Under the pieces are notes generated by a model, which saw nothing but the letters and a program-made list of their open reading frames with translations, had not been told where the DNA came from and did no database searches. From contig JAWAQR010000021.1 in the NCBI GenBank assembly GCA_038893835.1, forward strand, positions 1-22,730: 22,730 nt of DNA, in the 5' to 3' direction. The stretch is from Archaeoglobaceae archaeon. Lineage in GTDB: Archaea > Halobacteriota > Archaeoglobi > Archaeoglobales > Archaeoglobaceae. Position numbers and translations under genes: made by a program. Positions 8,234-22,730 of this stretch are shown piece after piece; the stretch's first letter is position 1, and the number at the start of each line of letters is the position of its first letter.

Positions 8234-9415
8234 TCAGAAGTCCGTCATTATTCTAAACTGATCCGTATCTGGCTTCAAATGTATCATGAATTTTCTCACA
8301 GCTCCTTCGACGTCTCTTGCCTTCGTTATCGCCCTGCCAACGATTACTATATCTGCTCCAGCTGATATCACTTCTGGAAAGTTTTCAGGTTTTATTCCTC
8401 CAGCAACAGCAACAAGGACCTTGAACTTCTCCTTTATCTTCCTTGCAAGAGCCCATGGTGGCTGGGATTGTTCAACATCTATAGCCCTATGCAGCTCAAC
8501 AACGTCTGGCAAAGCTTCGCTTGCAATCTCTTCTAATCTAGCCACTGGATTTTCAACGTTCAGCATATCAACAAATGCCAATATTCCTGTCTTCTTCGCC
8601 TCATTTATTCCCTTAACAATCGTGCTCTTTGGTGCTAAACCAGAAATTACGACCGCATTTGCTGTAGCATCAGCAGCCATTCTCGCTTCGAGATTTCCAA
8701 CGTCTAAGGTTTTCAAATCTAGTATGAAGAAGGCATTTGGCTTTATATCCCTCAATTTCAGAACAACATCGCATCCGTATTTCTTAACAAGTGGAGTCCC
8801 TATTTCGAAGATTATGTGATCGCTTTCTGGAATCTGAGATAATATAGAAATAACTTCTTCCAGATCTGGGATATCAAAGGCTATCTGCAAATACGGAGGA
8901 TCCCAGAGCTTCGTAAGCTTTCTACCAACAAGTGGATGCACACTGCGATCTTTCTCATATAGCACGGTTTCAACATCTGGAAAGTTGCTCATAGCTCTCT
9001 TTATAGCCAGCTTTGTGGCTCCATAGTTGTAGTAGTAGATCTTGTGCTTGTTCTTTGCCATTGGATGTATGAAGACGCTTACGATTATAAGATACTCTTC
9101 CGCCTTCTCCTTCGGAATATACCCTTCCTCAACTGCATCTGCTATAGCTTTTGCCACTGCTGCCTGTGCAACACCAAATATTAGCTCTGCTTGCTCCATA
9201 GTCTTAACCGTTACCTTTGGAACTATGATTGCAGGTGGTTTTGTTATTAAGTTTGGTCTGAGGACTGCTAGTAAAGGCGTATGTCCTGCAGAGAGATTGG
9301 AGAGAGCATTTGCAAATGCAAATGCTACAGGGCTATCTTTTGTTCCTATTAACAAATCTATGTGAGCAACCTCATAGCCTTCACCAATCAAAGCTTCACC
9401 AACTCTGAATTCCAT
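8234..9415 (-). CDS. fae-hps: Bifunctional formaldehyde-activating enzyme / 3-hexulose-6-phosphate synthase
   Basis: N-terminal Fae domain (GEALIG, EVAHIDL, GHTPLLAVLRPN, VFIHP). C-terminal HPS barrel (LQIAFD, EIGTPL, DLKTLD, LHRAID, AVAGG, IVGRAIT). Confidence 0.96.
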   Translation of the reverse strand: MEFRVGEALIGEGYEVAHIDLLIGTKDSPVAFAFANALSNLSAGHTPLLAVLRPNLITKPPAIIVPKVTVKTMEQAELIFGVAQAAVAKAIADAVEEGYIPKEKAEEYLIIVSVFIHPMAKNKHKIYYYNYGATKLAIKRAMSNFPDVETVLYEKDRSVHPLVGRKLTKLWDPPYLQIAFDIPDLEEVISILSQIPESDHIIFEIGTPLVKKYGCDVVLKLRDIKPNAFFILDLKTLDVGNLEARMAADATANAVVISGLAPKSTIVKGINEAKKTGILAFVDMLNVENPVARLEEIASEALPDVVELHRAIDVEQSQPPWALARKIKEKFKVLVAVAGGIKPENFPEVISAGADIVIVGRAITKARDVEGAVRKFMIHLKPDTDQFRIMTDF

Positions 9416-17896: not shown

Positions 17897-18201
17897 AAAA
17901 GATGGGATTCGCATTTGCAATCTGAGCATCCAAAGCCCTTTATTTTTTCAAGCTTTAGCTTAGATGCAAGTTCGCATTCGGGAATCTTGAATAAAATTGC
18001 CCCCACTATTTCGAATTCATCTAAGATGTAATCGATGTGCCATTTCCTTCCCTTTTTTTGAAAATGTCTTTTAATTCTGCTCATTTTCTTCGCGCTTCCG
18101 ACGTAGTAATAAAAACCTGGCTTGAAAAGAAACTTTCCGAGTTTTCCTATTTCCAATTCCCTCTCCTCCTCATTTTTCAGGATCAAAACGTATGAAGTCA
18201 T
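17857..18201 (-). CDS. GIY-YIG (Uri superfamily, DUF123) nuclease-like protein
   Basis: SYVL...YYYVGSA...RIKRH...WHIDY...EC...GFGCSDCKCESHLF. ATGA overlap with the upstream gene. Confidence 0.88.
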   Translation of the reverse strand: MTSYVLILKNEEERELEIGKLGKFLFKPGFYYYVGSAKKMSRIKRHFQKKGRKWHIDYILDEFEIVGAILFKIPECELASKLKLEKIKGFGCSDCKCESHLFYSKILTIENLFT

Positions 18202-19163
18202 AAGGAGTAAGCTTTATAACAGGTTCTACATCCCTCAGGTAATTCCCGGGAGAAATAAATTCTTTCCTCAAACATTTTTCTGAAATTTACGTAATCTTTA
18301 CACTTCCAAACACTCTTAAAGTCCTCAGCTCTTCCAAAATAAACTTTCCTAACTCTCCTTTCTTCCCCTTTAAAATATCTGACTATCCATTCTCCATTTG
18401 TTGGAAGATGAAGATACGCGCAGGGTGCAATCAGACCTTCTACTGTAACAAAGCAATTTCTAATCGGATTCTCTGCACAAACTGCAGCCTCTTCAAACTT
18501 CAAAGGTCTGACAACAAATTCTATCCCGATTTCTTCAGCCCTTCTTTTTGCCCTTTCAACGATTTCAAATATTTCTCTATCAACCTCGTTCGAAAAAACT
18601 TCCAAGCCAACTAGGTTTTTGGAAGGTATGTAATCCAAGTTGTTGGCGATTACCTGATCGACACCAATCTTCTTTGCCATTTCAACTAGAGCTGGGAGCT
18701 CAGCTATCGTGTTTCTCATCATCAGCGTCGCAATAACGATTTTTGGTCTCTTTTTTCTCAAAGCCAATTCCTGGATTTTTGGAGCTATTTCCTCAATCCT
18801 GCTTTTCCTAACTTCTCTCTGAGCATTTATCCCAGCAATTGATACTGCTAGCAAATCCAGCTTGAGCAAACTTTCTTTCCATTCATCGATCAGCAGACCA
18901 TTCGTAGTCAAACCTACTCTACACTTTTTCTTCGCAAACTCTATCATCTCTCCTATTTCGGAATTCAACAAAGGTTCTCCCCAGCCCTGCAGATGCGCAT
19001 AGCTGAATTTGCTAAAGGGCAATTTCTTGAAATCCTCAAAATCCATGTCCATCGATTTCCATTCAAAAAAAGATCTCGGACACATTAGACAGCTCAACTG
19101 ACATCTCGTTGAAACCTCTACCTGAATCGAGTTTAGTTTAAAAAAAGGAAAAAGAAGGGACAT
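18198..19163 (-). CDS. Radical SAM/SPASM-domain protein
   Basis: CQLSCLMC, HLQGWGEPLL, TTNG, and C-terminal C..CFVTVEGLIAPC...CRTC auxiliary-cluster motif. ATG abuts the upstream TAG. Confidence 0.92.
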   Translation of the reverse strand: MSLLFPFFKLNSIQVEVSTRCQLSCLMCPRSFFEWKSMDMDFEDFKKLPFSKFSYAHLQGWGEPLLNSEIGEMIEFAKKKCRVGLTTNGLLIDEWKESLLKLDLLAVSIAGINAQREVRKSRIEEIAPKIQELALRKKRPKIVIATLMMRNTIAELPALVEMAKKIGVDQVIANNLDYIPSKNLVGLEVFSNEVDREIFEIVERAKRRAEEIGIEFVVRPLKFEEAAVCAENPIRNCFVTVEGLIAPCAYLHLPTNGEWIVRYFKGEERRVRKVYFGRAEDFKSVWKCKDYVNFRKMFEERIYFSRELPEGCRTCYKAYSL

Positions 19164-19490
19164 CTAAGATTTTTTCTTCTCTTCCTTAACCGTCTCAAAT
19201 TTTGGAGTCATTTCCAGCATTTTGTTGTATATCTCATCTTGTTGCTTTTCTATTTGTTCAATCAACTTCTTGAAGCTTTCAAAGACCTTTGTCTGCGAAT
19301 CTGAGTATAGCTGAATTGCCTTCCTTATACTCTCAAAGCTCTCCCCAGGGACTAGCTGGCGAACGTAGAATTCATACATGCTTATGTAGCTATCCATCCC
19401 CACTTTCAAAAGGTCCAAAGATGTCTTAGCTATTCCGAACGCCATCTTGTAAAATCCCCTTCCCGCTTCCAAAAACTCCCTCATCTCCAT
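19164..19490 (-). CDS. All-helical amphipathic protein, phasin (PhaP)-like (108 aa)
   Basis: ATG at 19490 preceded by GGGGGTGG SD. No Cys, Trp or His and only two Pro, with a central VPG break between helical segments. Lies directly after a PhaR-like gene. The CDS is solid; the phasin call is inference. Confidence 0.55.
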   Translation of the reverse strand: MEMREFLEAGRGFYKMAFGIAKTSLDLLKVGMDSYISMYEFYVRQLVPGESFESIRKAIQLYSDSQTKVFESFKKLIEQIEKQQDEIYNKMLEMTPKFETVKEEKKKS

Positions 19491-19746
19491 ACTTTCCACC
19501 CCCTTCTTTAATTATTATTACTTTAACTATGTCACCATCGTTTATACCCAAAACGATCTTTTCAGCTTCTGGAATTGAAATCCTTCCACCAGCTTGGACC
19601 TTTGCTCTGAAAACAGCTATTTCTCTGCTCACAATGCTGAATCCAACAAAAAATTTCATCATGGATGAGATTGTGTCCATGAAATCTCTCTGCAGCTTCA
19701 GAGCATCTTCCCAGATTTTCTGAAATTCGCTGAAATTTGGAACCAT
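19426..19746 (-). CDS. AbrB/MazE/SpoVT-domain regulator, haloarchaeal PhaR-like
   Basis: C-terminal FRAKVQAGGRISIPEAEKIVLGINDGDIV swapped-hairpin domain, preceded by an F/M-rich amphipathic segment of about 44 aa. The tail overlaps the next gene by 65 nt. The AbrB fold is secure; PhaR orthology is from recalled similarity. Confidence 0.75.
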   Translation of the reverse strand: MVPNFSEFQKIWEDALKLQRDFMDTISSMMKFFVGFSIVSREIAVFRAKVQAGGRISIPEAEKIVLGINDGDIVKVIIIKEGGGKYGDEGVFGSGKGILQDGVRNS

Positions 19747-19752
19747 CTATTG

Positions 19753-19785
19753 GTATTTATTGCCAAAAGTATAAATACTTTTCGG
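19753..19785 (-). promoter_or_regulatory. BRE-TATA of the PhaR-like operon, with overlapping inverted repeats
   Basis: - strand CGAAAAG-TATTTATA ends 23 nt before ATG 19746. Dyads are AAAAGTAT-AA-ATACTTTT (19765-19782) and GTATTTAT-N10-ATAAATAC (19753-19778). Confidence 0.7.
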
Positions 19786-19823
19786 TTTATTAGTTTTTAA
19801 GGATGGCGAAATACTGCGACAGA

Positions 19824-19830
19824 TTTTTAA
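19824..19830 (+). promoter_or_regulatory. Candidate TATA box for fprA
   Basis: TTTTTAA 21 nt before ATG 19852. Confidence 0.4.
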
Positions 19831-19851
19831 CTAATAACACCCATTAAATTC

Positions 19852-21009
19852 ATGAAAGCAGTTCAGATGGCAGAAGACATTTTCTGGGTTGGCGTTCTGG
19901 ATTGGGATGAGAGAGATTTTCACAACTTCCAAACTCCGAGGGGGTTGACTTATAACAGCTATTTAATAATCGATGAAAAAAGGGTTTTGATCGACGTCGT
20001 TAAACGCAAGTTCGTTGGAGAGCATCTAGAAAAGATTTCCAGCATCGTTGATCCGAGTGAATTGGATTATGTCATCGTAAACCACATAGAACCAGATCAT
20101 GCGAGCGGACTTGCGGATGTCATGAAGGTTGCGAAAGATGCTACCATTATCTGTTCCAATAAAGGTAAGGAAGGGATATGTAAGAACTTTGACTGCAAAG
20201 ATTGGAAAATAAACGTTGTAAAAAATGGGGATAAGCTGAAAGTAGGAAAGAGGACGCTTATGTTCATCGACATGACGATGCTCCACTGGCCGGATAGCAT
20301 TGCCACTTATTCGATGGAAGACAAAATCCTTTTCTCAAACGACGCCTTCGGTCAACATATAGCTACTGAAGAGAGATTTGCAGAAGAAATTGGAGTTGAA
20401 GAAGCTTTAAAATGGGCTAAAATCTACTATGCAAACATTCTAATGCCACTATCGCAGCTGGTTAAGAAGAAGCTCGAGGAATTGAAAGATCTGGAAGTCA
20501 AAATGATCCTTCCGAGCCATGGAGTTGCATGGAGAGAGCCAAAAATTATAATAGAAAATTATGCCAAATGGGCGAGCTTTGAAGTTGAGAACAAAGTAGT
20601 AGTCGTTTACGATACGATGTGGGGATCTACGGAGAAACTTGCAAGAGCGATAGCTGATGGTGCTTCAAAAAATGCTAAAGTCAGGATTTTCAACACGAGA
20701 AAGGATTCCTGGACAGAAATAGTTACGGAGATACTGGATGCAAAGGCAATTGCCATTGGGGCTCCAACGATTCACAACTCCATATTTCCACCTGTTGCAG
20801 GATTCTTGAGTTATCTGAGAAGTTTGAGACCAAGAAATAAAAAAGTGCTGGTTTTCGGCTCCTATGGCTGGAATGGGGTTGCTGTGAAGGAAATGGCAAA
20901 GCTGTTTGAGGAACTTGGCTTTGAAGTCATGCAATTTGCAGTCAAATTCAAGCCAACGAAGGAAGAGCTTGAAAAAGCTTATGAACTAGGGGTTGAGTTG
21001 GCAAAATGA
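19852..21009 (+). CDS. fprA: Flavodiiron protein (A-type flavoprotein FprA; O2/NO reductase)
   Basis: TYNSY, HIEPDH, LHWPD, SNDAFGQH and PSHG diiron ligands. Flavodoxin domain YDTMWGSTE, GAPT, GSYGW. Confidence 0.96.
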   Translation: MKAVQMAEDIFWVGVLDWDERDFHNFQTPRGLTYNSYLIIDEKRVLIDVVKRKFVGEHLEKISSIVDPSELDYVIVNHIEPDHASGLADVMKVAKDATIICSNKGKEGICKNFDCKDWKINVVKNGDKLKVGKRTLMFIDMTMLHWPDSIATYSMEDKILFSNDAFGQHIATEERFAEEIGVEEALKWAKIYYANILMPLSQLVKKKLEELKDLEVKMILPSHGVAWREPKIIIENYAKWASFEVENKVVVVYDTMWGSTEKLARAIADGASKNAKVRIFNTRKDSWTEIVTEILDAKAIAIGAPTIHNSIFPPVAGFLSYLRSLRPRNKKVLVFGSYGWNGVAVKEMAKLFEELGFEVMQFAVKFKPTKEELEKAYELGVELAK

Positions 21010-21804: not shown

Positions 21805-22730
21805 TTACTGTCTTCTCCTAAGCAGATAGGCAATCGCTAAGAGCCCAGCGATTGCGAAGATTGCTTCAAATCCAGGTATTCCTGGTGCTGGTGTTGGAGT
21901 TGGTGTTGGAGTTGGAGTTGGCGTTGGAGTTGGTGTTGGTGTTGGAGTCGGCGTTGGTGTTGGTGTTGGAGTTGGAGTCGGTGTTGGTGTTGGAGTTGGC
22001 GTTGGCATCTCTTTAACGAGCTGGATTGTTCTCTTCACAACTATGTCGTCATGGGCATCGTAGACTTTAGCCATTGGGCTTGCTGGATCGAGATCGTAGA
22101 GATCTTCAACAAAGTCAAGCTCAGTCTTGTCGTTATACTTGCAGGTTCCAGCCGTGTCTCTGACCCAGAGTGCATAGATTCCCTCTGCAAGTCCATAAGT
22201 TTCAAATTCAACCGTTGCTTTCCCTTCACTGTCAAGTGTAACTATCTGCGTTGCCTTATAGTTCACTCCTACGAGCGTTGCATATATGTGATCATATCCT
22301 GCAGGTCCAACTCTGTTCGTTGAAATCTTGACAACTATCTTCTCACCGATGACCACGGTTGAAGGTACTTCAACGTCGAGCGTCTGAGCTACGATTTCAA
22401 CGATCTTCGACGTCCTTGCTGAGTCTATTTCTTCGCCATCTTTGAATCTCATCTTTACTGTGAACAGATACAGCCCTGGCTCAAGTGGATTAGCTCCGGT
22501 GTAATCCTTGAAGTCGATCGTCCAGTTGACATAGTTCTCAGCGTTTGGACGGCTCCATTCAGCTAATCCAAAGTTCTGAGGTCTTGCCTTTACGTTGCTT
22601 CCTTCGAAGACAAAGGTTAGTTCAACGTTCTCTCTCTTTCCAGGATCTGTAAGCACCGCAACTTCTATCCTGCCCTGATATGGTATCTTTGTTGGAATGT
22701 CAACGCTTATAATTCTCGGATCCGTGACAA
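21805..22730 (-). CDS. PGF-CTERM cell-surface / S-layer-like glycoprotein, 3' part (5' end outside window)
   Basis: The frame stays open to the window edge ([14 protein letters not shown]...). Beta-rich domains, a (PT)n linker, then PGF + TM helix + RRRQ, the archaeosortase A signal. Confidence 0.92.
21892..22005 (-). repeat. Coding hexamer tandem repeat encoding (Pro-Thr)19
   Basis: 19 units of CCR-ACN (+ strand NGTYGG) with synonymous variation. Confidence 0.95.

Follow-up and report, generated by a model that had tools for sequence, protein, structure and literature searches.

The 22,730-nucleotide (nt) stretch of DNA analysed here (henceforth referred to as 'the window') is contig JAWAQR010000021.1 of an Archaeoglobaceae archaeon (assembly GCA_038893835.1). 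Near one end, on the reverse strand, lie two small overlapping genes that we read as a probable counterpart of the phaR-phaP pair, which in haloarchaea encodes a regulator of polyhydroxyalkanoate (PHA) storage and a granule-associated protein (phasin). The features of the pair are as follows:

19426..19746, reverse strand: open reading frame (ORF) of the phaR-like gene, encoding an AbrB-type protein of 106 amino acids (aa)
19164..19490, reverse strand: ORF in the phaP position, encoding 108 aa from its ATG and ending in a TAG stop
19497..19503, reverse strand: Shine-Dalgarno-like sequence GGGGGTG within the 3' end of the phaR-like gene, 6 nt before the phaP-like ATG

The ORFs share 65 nt (19426-19490). 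Among close relatives the overlap is 32 nt and the upstream protein is 94-95 aa long. A GGT>GGA change in the window removes the upstream TAG stop and adds 11 codons, while remaining synonymous in the downstream gene; because this stop is lost, the last 11 codons of the phaR-like gene are, judging from the compared sequences, a lineage-specific read-through tail. An alternative GTG start at 19499 would extend the downstream protein to 111 aa; its relatives begin at ATG. When the junctions of the window and seven related loci were compared, GGAGGTGA was found in the relatives at the Shine-Dalgarno-like position, and we take the internal site as a sign of putative translational coupling. Both proteins belong to conserved families: 21 of 23 candidates for the PhaR-like family and 30 of 34 for the family of the downstream protein (henceforth referred to as the 'helical' protein) were retained at E ≤ 0.001, with mean column identities of 50% and 63%, respectively, and all organism names given for homologues of either protein are Archaeoglobaceae, Archaeoglobales or Archaeoglobus. 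As two conserved families, the gene pair is by this measure not a product of chance.

The 106-aa protein, which contains FRAKVQAGGRISIPEAE...LGINDGDIV, combines an N-terminal amphipathic helix with a C-terminal AbrB-type (swapped-hairpin) DNA-binding domain. The profile of its family found the PDB entry 2glw (E 8.4e-8) and, weakly, AbrB/SpoVT chains; a Pfam scan of the protein itself gave no match and the NCBIfam model TIGR01439 (AbrB domain) gave a weak one (13.3 bits). In 21 family members the Q-x-GGRISIPE loop is invariant (Q51, G53-P59 and E60). By BLASTP the protein is 45% identical over 60 aa to PhaR of Haloferax mediterranei (E 1e-14), the recognition loop VQAGGRISIPEAE of the window aligning with VQSGGRISIPDAE, and hhalign of the family against Haloferax PhaR scored 98.6% over 77 columns (residues 6-82), so that the N-terminal half is included in the match. 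In a sample of 301 genomes from the phylum, the PhaR-like profile matched 33, of which 15 are of its own family and 18 belong to six other families. Fifteen of the 18 out-of-family matches begin by model position 16 and end at position 80-82 of 89, and the 16 out-of-family loci that were fetched encode acidic proteins whose C-terminal end is the haloarchaeal PhaR motif. A tblastn search of 72,556 plasmid records with the 106-aa protein returned six, all of them haloarchaeal megaplasmids. The four that were inspected all hold AbrB genes, and in three of them this gene directly precedes phaP(-like), phaE and phaC: on pHM300 of H. mediterranei it stands between maoC and phaP-phaE-phaC, and the Haladaptatus and Halogeometricum plasmids have the same layout. 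On the Haloarcula plasmid the gene after the AbrB gene encodes a hypothetical protein of 183 aa, and the 3.2 kb viewed there contain neither phaE nor phaC. Overall, these comparisons indicate that the 106-aa protein is very probably PhaR, the orthologue of the haloarchaeal PHA regulator.

In four genomes a further PhaR-like copy, more divergent than the first, was seen near the pha cluster (E 1e-14 to 1e-21 with the family profile), at G047:C6:117221-117451, G048:C38:12435-12659, G031:C39:8511-8738 and G046:C10:405-611.

A small AbrB-type protein encoded beside a small overlapping gene has the usual look of a type II toxin-antitoxin system, and we considered whether the pair could be an AbrB/MazE-type antitoxin with an unusual partner. 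However, a Pfam scan of the window found neither PIN nor MazF after the AbrB gene, and the partner matches no other toxin family. The generic AbrB/MazE model PF04014 identifies three other genes of the genome above its cut-off and misses the phaR-like gene even at E ≤ 1; the latter therefore does not group with ordinary antitoxins. The plasmid matches, all to haloarchaeal AbrB genes and in three of the four inspected cases to genes heading pha clusters, point away from a toxin-antitoxin system, as do the synteny and co-occurrence with PhaC described below. We regard such a system as extremely improbable and rejected it on the lack of a toxin partner, the PF04014 miss and the pha synteny and co-occurrence.

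AlphaFold2 models the 108-aa protein as a hairpin of two helices (residues 2-46 and 50-107; mean predicted local distance difference test (pLDDT) score 88.3) with a VPG sequence (residues 47-49) at the turn. The protein is amphipathic, its mean hydrophobic moment being 0.384 compared to 0.220 ± 0.038 in 500 shuffles (z = 4.3). The original prediction, made from the letters of the window alone, had described a 106-aa protein with a C-terminal AbrB domain, carrying a motif nearly identical to one of haloarchaeal PhaR, followed by a 108-aa helical amphipathic protein with a central VPG and not by a PIN or MazF toxin; the ORFs, the 2glw match, the H. mediterranei loop, the Pfam scan and the modelled hairpin agree with this description. 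Two leads, and we treat them only as such, connect the helical protein with phasins: one homologue carries the label 'Phasin family protein' in UniRef, which is a soft lead, and the four nearest named clusters in the ESM-Atlas are PHA_synth_III_E, PHB_acc, Phasin_2 and PhaP_Bmeg, at scores of 0.84-0.87 (0.84 for both Phasin_2 and PhaP_Bmeg) that lie below the 0.9 line. When the PhaR-like protein was modelled in complex with the helical one, the prediction scored 0.02 against a mark of 0.32, which speaks neither for nor against binding.

The context of the helical gene, however, is strong. In four loci (L024, L025, L034 and L037) it fills the phaP slot in the order phaR-phaP-phaE-phaC. In six others (L023, L026, L028, L030, L033 and L035) the pair adjoins PhaC_C2-type genes, which are accompanied by a PhaE-like gene if the locus extends far enough, and in L019, L027, L031 and L032 it adjoins the gene for a 186-aa partner of a second PhaC type. 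A scan of 92 species-level genomes of the family found PhaC-like genes in 36 (E ≤ 1e-30), the helical protein in 32 and the PhaR-like protein in 31. PhaC is present in every one of the 32 genomes with the helical protein, which is absent from all 56 genomes without PhaC; likewise, 29 of the 31 PhaR-positive genomes have PhaC, the two exceptions being weak or partial matches, although the genomes are kin and these counts overstate independence. The helical protein was not found in four PhaC-positive genomes, of which two are incomplete (78-84%) and the other two carry PhaC at the edge of a contig. The useful part of the comparison is the concordance within genera, in which the genes are patchy but occur together (1 of 6 genomes in genus g3, 2 of 3 in g11 and 5 of 10 in g12). 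G085, a 99% complete genome from the window's own genus (g1), is without the PhaC, helical and PhaR-like genes alike.

Three genomes of another genus (G002, G003 and G011 of g2; loci L065-L067) have the helical gene directly before phaE-phaC and, by genome scan and in the fetched loci, no PhaR-like gene. The retention of the helical gene with phaE-phaC where phaR is missing favours a role linked to the synthase or the granule over one as a partner of PhaR only. This bears on the alternative that the helical protein is an anti-repressor or co-repressor partner of the PhaR-type regulator and coats no granule. Small helical anti-repressors of AbrB-type regulators are found in bacteria, and such a partner would suit two genes that overlap and look translationally coupled, a protein without sequence similarity to any phasin, and a small helical hairpin, which is a generic protein-binding fold. 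It is harder to reconcile with the three PhaR-less loci, with the absence of the helical protein from all 56 PhaC-less genomes and with its place in the phaP slot of phaRPEC clusters, and we hold it to be quite improbable. Overall, only position, co-occurrence and architecture make the helical protein phasin-like, and it has no detectable sequence homology to phasins; it is the positional and probably the functional counterpart of PhaP, and we consider it a candidate phasin of an Archaeoglobales-restricted family, for which a phasin role is reasonably likely.

In G003 the helical gene follows a 431-aa gene which, by eye, resembles a 3-hydroxyacyl-CoA dehydrogenase/enoyl-CoA hydratase fusion (crotonase-like motif).

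The region upstream of the phaR-like gene contains the following features, numbered in brackets from its ATG:

19751..19755, reverse strand: predicted operator half-site TACCA (-9), proximal, between the TATA box and the ATG
19761..19765, reverse strand: predicted operator half-site TGGCA (-19), TGGTA in many relatives, exactly 10 nt from the -9 site
19770..19777, reverse strand: TATA box TATTTATA, 24-31 nt upstream of the ATG, in a position conserved in 27 aligned upstream regions
19783..19787, reverse strand: third, weaker half-site AACCG (-41), TACCA or TACCG in relatives

Given the distance from the TATA box to the ATG, the transcript from the predicted start site should have no leader or almost none. 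The layout is fixed in 27 related loci, with one half-site at -41, the TATA box at -31 to -24 and half-sites at -19 and -9; the -41 site abuts the upstream edge of the region of the TATA box and the B recognition element (BRE) and may be partly BRE. Strict TACCA/TGGTA sequences number 48 in 27 upstream regions of 80 nt, where 0.117 per region would be expected. After dereplication (<70% identity), 18 promoters hold 31 sites, compared to a shuffle mean of 2.1 (maximum 10 in 2000 shuffles), and seven pairs of half-sites exactly 10 nt apart, compared to 0.03 in shuffles; in a control with 824 ORFs of the window's own genome the mean was 0.067 sites and only two ORFs had at least two. Half-site spacings in the Archaeoglobaceae phaR promoters peak at 10, 22 and 32 nt. 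Three phaP-phaE-phaC loci without phaR have no phased array.

The same kind of motif is found in haloarchaea. Nineteen haloarchaeal-type phaR promoters contain 32 nACCA/TGGTn pairs at exactly 10 nt (shuffle mean 0.32, maximum 4 in 1000 shuffles), with spacing peaks at 10, 20 and 30 nt and at least one pair in 16 of the 19. In H. mediterranei the phaR promoter reads CACCA, TACCA, TACCA and TGGTG at 10-nt steps, and the Halogeometricum promoter has five sites. According to the accessible sections of PMC9049629, PhaR represses phaRP in H. mediterranei, and the phaRP promoter there has four tandem repeats that are thought to be the PhaR site. The literature searched, which did not include the primary paper on the repeats, contained no statement of the half-site sequence or of its conservation beyond haloarchaea. 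A PhaR recognition loop and a predicted operator of phased half-sites are shared by Archaeoglobaceae and haloarchaea.

Another operator candidate was dropped. In the window the TATA box is embedded in a perfect inverted repeat of 8 bp whose arms are 2 nt apart (19765-19782, reverse strand), and L016 and L017 have a similar arrangement; this palindrome is not conserved in most relatives, and the half-sites were therefore preferred as the operator.

Scans of the window's protein families found no phaE or phaC, and the original prediction had supposed that the synthase is elsewhere or that the pair coats a different inclusion. The window is contig C21 of a 1.17-Mb assembly that is 97% complete, and the synthase genes are indeed on other contigs of it. 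On C2, a 292-aa PhaE-like gene (PF09712, 26.9 bits, cut-off 25.7) overlaps a 326-aa PhaC-like gene whose product is 41-42% identical to two haloarchaeal PhaC proteins. On C7, a gene for a 186-aa protein of no family is followed by a second PhaC-like gene of 370 aa, and the 186-aa protein may be an unrecognised PhaE-like subunit for this second PhaC type. In an alignment of both copies with the two haloarchaeal proteins C119, D271 and H300 are invariant, and the lipase boxes read GYCLGS and GYCMGG. In relatives from the window's own genus (G076, G077, G078 and G090) the pair is kept beside both PhaC genes; in the window's subclade it lies away from phaEC and is flanked by a flavodiiron-type gene on one side and a radical SAM gene on the other.

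The assembly is small for the family, in which the others measure 0.9-2.8 Mb. The 186-aa gene on C7 (L008:5596-6156, forward strand) lies directly upstream of the second PhaC-like gene and has no Pfam family.

The genes on either side of the pair are as follows:

18198..19163, reverse strand: radical SAM/SPASM gene, its ATG directly abutting the phaP-like TAG stop
19852-21009, forward strand: flavodiiron-type gene with ODP metallo-beta-lactamase and flavodoxin domains, divergent to the phaR-like gene

The best NCBIfam match of the radical SAM gene is to a tungsten-cofactor oxidoreductase maturase, at 138.5 bits where the cut-off is 380. The order phaR-phaP-radical SAM recurs in six related loci (L009-L012, L018 and L022), and the radical SAM gene may be co-transcribed with phaR-phaP; we know of no role in PHA metabolism for a gene of this kind. 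The flavodiiron-type gene is flavorubredoxin-like (391 bits, cut-off 635) and shares an intergenic region of 105 nt with the phaR-like gene, an adjacency that is kept in L009-L012 and L022. The remainder of the window consists of housekeeping genes. Two further observations were made in it. At 21805-22728 (reverse strand) a gene running off the window end encodes a surface-type protein that has a long linker of Thr-Pro repeats as well as a PGF-CTERM sorting signal and that we read as a probable archaeosortase substrate, and at 8234-9415 (reverse strand) a formaldehyde-activating enzyme (Fae) domain is fused to a domain of the orotidine monophosphate (OMP) decarboxylase/HUMPS family.

We consider it likely that the locus as a whole is a phaR-phaP-type operon of a hot-spring Archaeoglobaceae archaeon, working as follows. 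PhaR oligomers would bind the 10-bp-phased TACCA/TGGTA half-sites that flank the TATA box, covering the leaderless transcript start, and would in this way repress their own operon. When the PhaE-PhaC synthases, whose genes are on other contigs, build polyester granules from precursors that are probably (R)-3-hydroxyacyl-CoA supplied by MaoC-type hydratases, the granules would draw PhaR off the promoter and the operon would be derepressed. The helical protein would then be translated via the internal Shine-Dalgarno site and would coat the granules. The titration step is modelled on bacterial PhaR. What we observe is the homology of PhaR, the gene order in relatives, the co-occurrence with PhaC, the conserved promoter motif and the intact synthase genes; DNA binding, granule binding, derepression and polymer production are what we infer.

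A number of results weigh against this reading, and the largest group of them concerns PhaP. BLASTP aligned the helical protein with H. mediterranei PhaP at 21% identity over 67 aa, with an E value of 0.005 that applies to the single pair; hhalign of the helical family scored 0.6% against this PhaP and again 0.6% against an alignment of 11 haloarchaeal PhaP sequences; and none of 21 family members matched the curated phasin models of Pfam (Phasin, Phasin_2 and PhaP_Bmeg) or NCBIfam at E ≤ 5, the Pfam scan of the helical protein yielding only sub-threshold noise. Nine matches at E ≤ 0.001 came from an exhaustive HMMER profile search covering 1.84 billion representatives. Four of these are short proteins in the family's own size range, two of which were already among the known family matches, and the other five, which are 374-1324 aa long and matched in several stretches, we regard as coiled-coil noise. 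A Foldseek comparison of the model with PDB structures gave nothing at E ≤ 0.001, only generic WXG100-like helical hairpins, and a PDB sequence-profile search with the helical family reached E 0.061 at best. Nor did hhalign relate the family to the PhaE-like protein of the same genome (0.8%) or to the 186-aa protein that accompanies the second PhaC (2.1%). Of the PhaR-PhaP-like module put forward in the original prediction, then, the PhaR half is borne out by homology (BLASTP, and hhalign at 98.6%) and the PhaP half finds no such homology (hhalign at 0.6%).

Other points on the same side concern the regulator and its target. AlphaFold2 modelled the PhaR-like monomer poorly (pLDDT 60.9), which we take to reflect the folding of AbrB domains as swapped dimers. 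No operator-like motif lies upstream of the genome's own synthase loci (the phaE and 186-aa genes), and a wider PhaR regulon was not found in the genome: strict pairs at 10 nt number two genome-wide, compared to 2-7 in shuffles, and a relaxed half-site scan returned seven ORFs, including phaR itself, none of them PHA-related. DNA nearly identical to that of the window is present in hot-spring metagenomes. As a soft lead in favour of the reading, contigs of one metatranscriptome (X6) cover both ORFs; they leave 19761-19883, and with it the intergenic promoter, uncovered, and a second RNA run (X9) gave no contigs here, the uncovered parts not being evidence. One contig of the X6 RNA library spans the phaP-radical SAM junction, which is no proof of a single transcript, and RNA contigs, showing neither transcription level, strand nor ends, give a weak hint. 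The kinship of the genomes in the co-occurrence counts belongs here too.

The synthases and precursors supply the last group of such points. Both PhaC-like proteins fall below the TIGR01836 cut-off (338.7 and 299.4 compared to 365.3 bits), which is reached by none of the 92 Archaeoglobaceae genomes; the pair and the two synthase loci are on three different contigs; and no acetoacetyl-CoA reductase of the short-chain dehydrogenase/reductase (SDR) type (TIGR01829) was found in the genome at E ≤ 0.001. A genome search for synthase and precursor genes, as proposed with the original prediction, yielded PhaC, PhaE-like, MaoC and thiolase-family genes and left the SDR-type reductase missing. With two MaoC dehydratases and seven thiolase-family genes above cut-off and no TIGR01829-type reductase, the precursors would most likely be supplied from beta-oxidation by a PhaJ-type route. 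PHA production is unproven in any Archaeoglobaceae.

These points could also suggest that the module serves something other than classical PHA, be it another polyester, PhaC-like enzymes that act as hydrolases, or a drifted pair that has joined the radical SAM/SPASM gene. In favour of such a role, the PhaC-like genes score below their cut-off, the search for a PhaB-type reductase was negative, the pair of the window subclade sits between the flavodiiron-type and radical SAM genes and not beside phaEC, and PHA has been shown in no Archaeoglobaceae (bioRxiv 10.1101/2025.05.06.652502, as far as its available text goes). On the other hand, the Cys-Asp-His triad is intact and the C2 copy retains its 41-42% identity to haloarchaeal PhaC, the PhaE-like partner exceeds its Pfam cut-off, four genomes of the same genus (G076, G077, G078 and G090) keep the pair beside both PhaC genes, the operator motif and DNA-binding loop are conserved with an experimentally studied haloarchaeal system, and MaoC hydratases offer a precursor route independent of PhaB. 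A role of this other kind is in our view unlikely, and we prefer the phaR-phaP-type operon with PHA as its polymer; actual PHA synthesis in the window's organism we judge to be somewhat likely.

If the genes function as proposed, anaerobic, thermophilic archaea are to be counted among the organisms that store PHA, which bears on the upper temperature limit of polyester granules and would make a thermostable synthase, phasin and regulator available for the production of bioplastics. More tentatively, and at slightly less than even odds, we propose the complete picture: polyester granules in hot-spring Archaeoglobaceae, a new phasin family represented by the 108-aa hairpin, a PhaR-operator pair intact across Archaeoglobi and Halobacteria, and a unit that within the genus has become detached from the synthase and joined to a radical SAM/SPASM gene. 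The idea behind the original prediction is right but it is not new. That prediction knew of no description of PHA or similar storage inclusions for Archaeoglobi, and a 2025 preprint had predicted the pha genes in Ferroglobus and Geoglobus (bioRxiv 10.1101/2025.05.06.652502, in its available parts). Compared to that preprint, three things are new here. The pha set is common in the family, with PhaC-like genes in 36 of 92 species-level genomes; the archaeal 'phaP' is a separate family that is recognisable by position and co-occurrence only; and the PhaR loop and predicted phased half-site operator shared with haloarchaea offer a concrete, testable DNA target.

Among known systems the closest is that of H. 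mediterranei. Its PhaR (pHM300 HFX_RS16465) has 110 aa compared to 106 in the window, an N-terminal helical part and a C-terminal AbrB-like domain, a nearly identical loop, an overlap with the next gene and 10-bp-phased nACCA/TGGTn promoter repeats. It differs in its isoelectric point (pI), which is 4.35, whereas that of the window protein is a near-neutral 6.25, and in its surroundings, since H. mediterranei phaR adjoins maoC/phaE/phaC and the phaR-like gene of the window does not. The half-sites are also placed differently: those of Archaeoglobaceae flank the TATA box (-41, -19 and -9), and those of haloarchaea stand in tandem immediately upstream of it. Only for the haloarchaeal PhaR is there experimental support for repression and for association with granules (PMC9049629, accessible sections). 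PhaP of H. mediterranei resembles the helical protein in that its gene lies directly downstream of phaR, overlapping it, and upstream of phaE (as the helical gene does in relatives). Both proteins are small, consist of helices throughout, are strongly amphipathic and have a Pro-Gly turn following their first long helix. However, PhaP has 154 aa and a pI of 4.08, whereas the window protein has 108 aa, a pI of 6.36 and is not acidic, and the two show no significant similarity. The helical family was confined to Archaeoglobales in the searches made, and haloarchaeal PhaP homologues are stated to occur only in haloarchaea (PMC9049629, accessible sections).

Proteins of the AbrB/MazE/SpoVT swapped-hairpin type share the fold class of the C-terminal domain of the window protein, but the latter has an extra N-terminal helical half and no toxin partner and is missed by the generic models. 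The bacterial PhaR-PhaP circuit, for example that of Cupriavidus necator or Paracoccus denitrificans, is analogous in its logic: bacterial PhaR is a repressor that binds both DNA and granules and controls the phasin gene, so that the phasin is made only when polymer exists. H. mediterranei PhaR has correspondingly been called a 'PHA-responsive autoregulated repressor', and the bacterial phaR and phaP genes have separate promoters (PMC9049629, accessible sections). The bacterial regulator differs in belonging to an unrelated family (PHB_acc/PHB_acc_N, not AbrB).

Within the Archaeoglobales, the available parts of PMC9696306 contain no mention of PHA. The preprint (bioRxiv 10.1101/2025.05.06.652502), in the parts available, reports seven full-triad PhaC matches in 860 extremely thermophilic archaeal genomes, all of them in Archaeoglobaceae, and predicts phaC, a putative phaE and phaR/phaP homologues as an operon in Ferroglobus placidus and Geoglobus ahangari; those parts describe no experiment on these archaea and call for such work, and the main-text parts hold no promoter analysis or test of phaP homology. 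According to the same parts, F. placidus and G. ahangari belong to the same organism family as the window genome and have the same gene set, but their pha clusters are contiguous whereas the pha genes of the window genome are spread over three contigs. The window adds a further lineage with a dispersed layout of pha genes.

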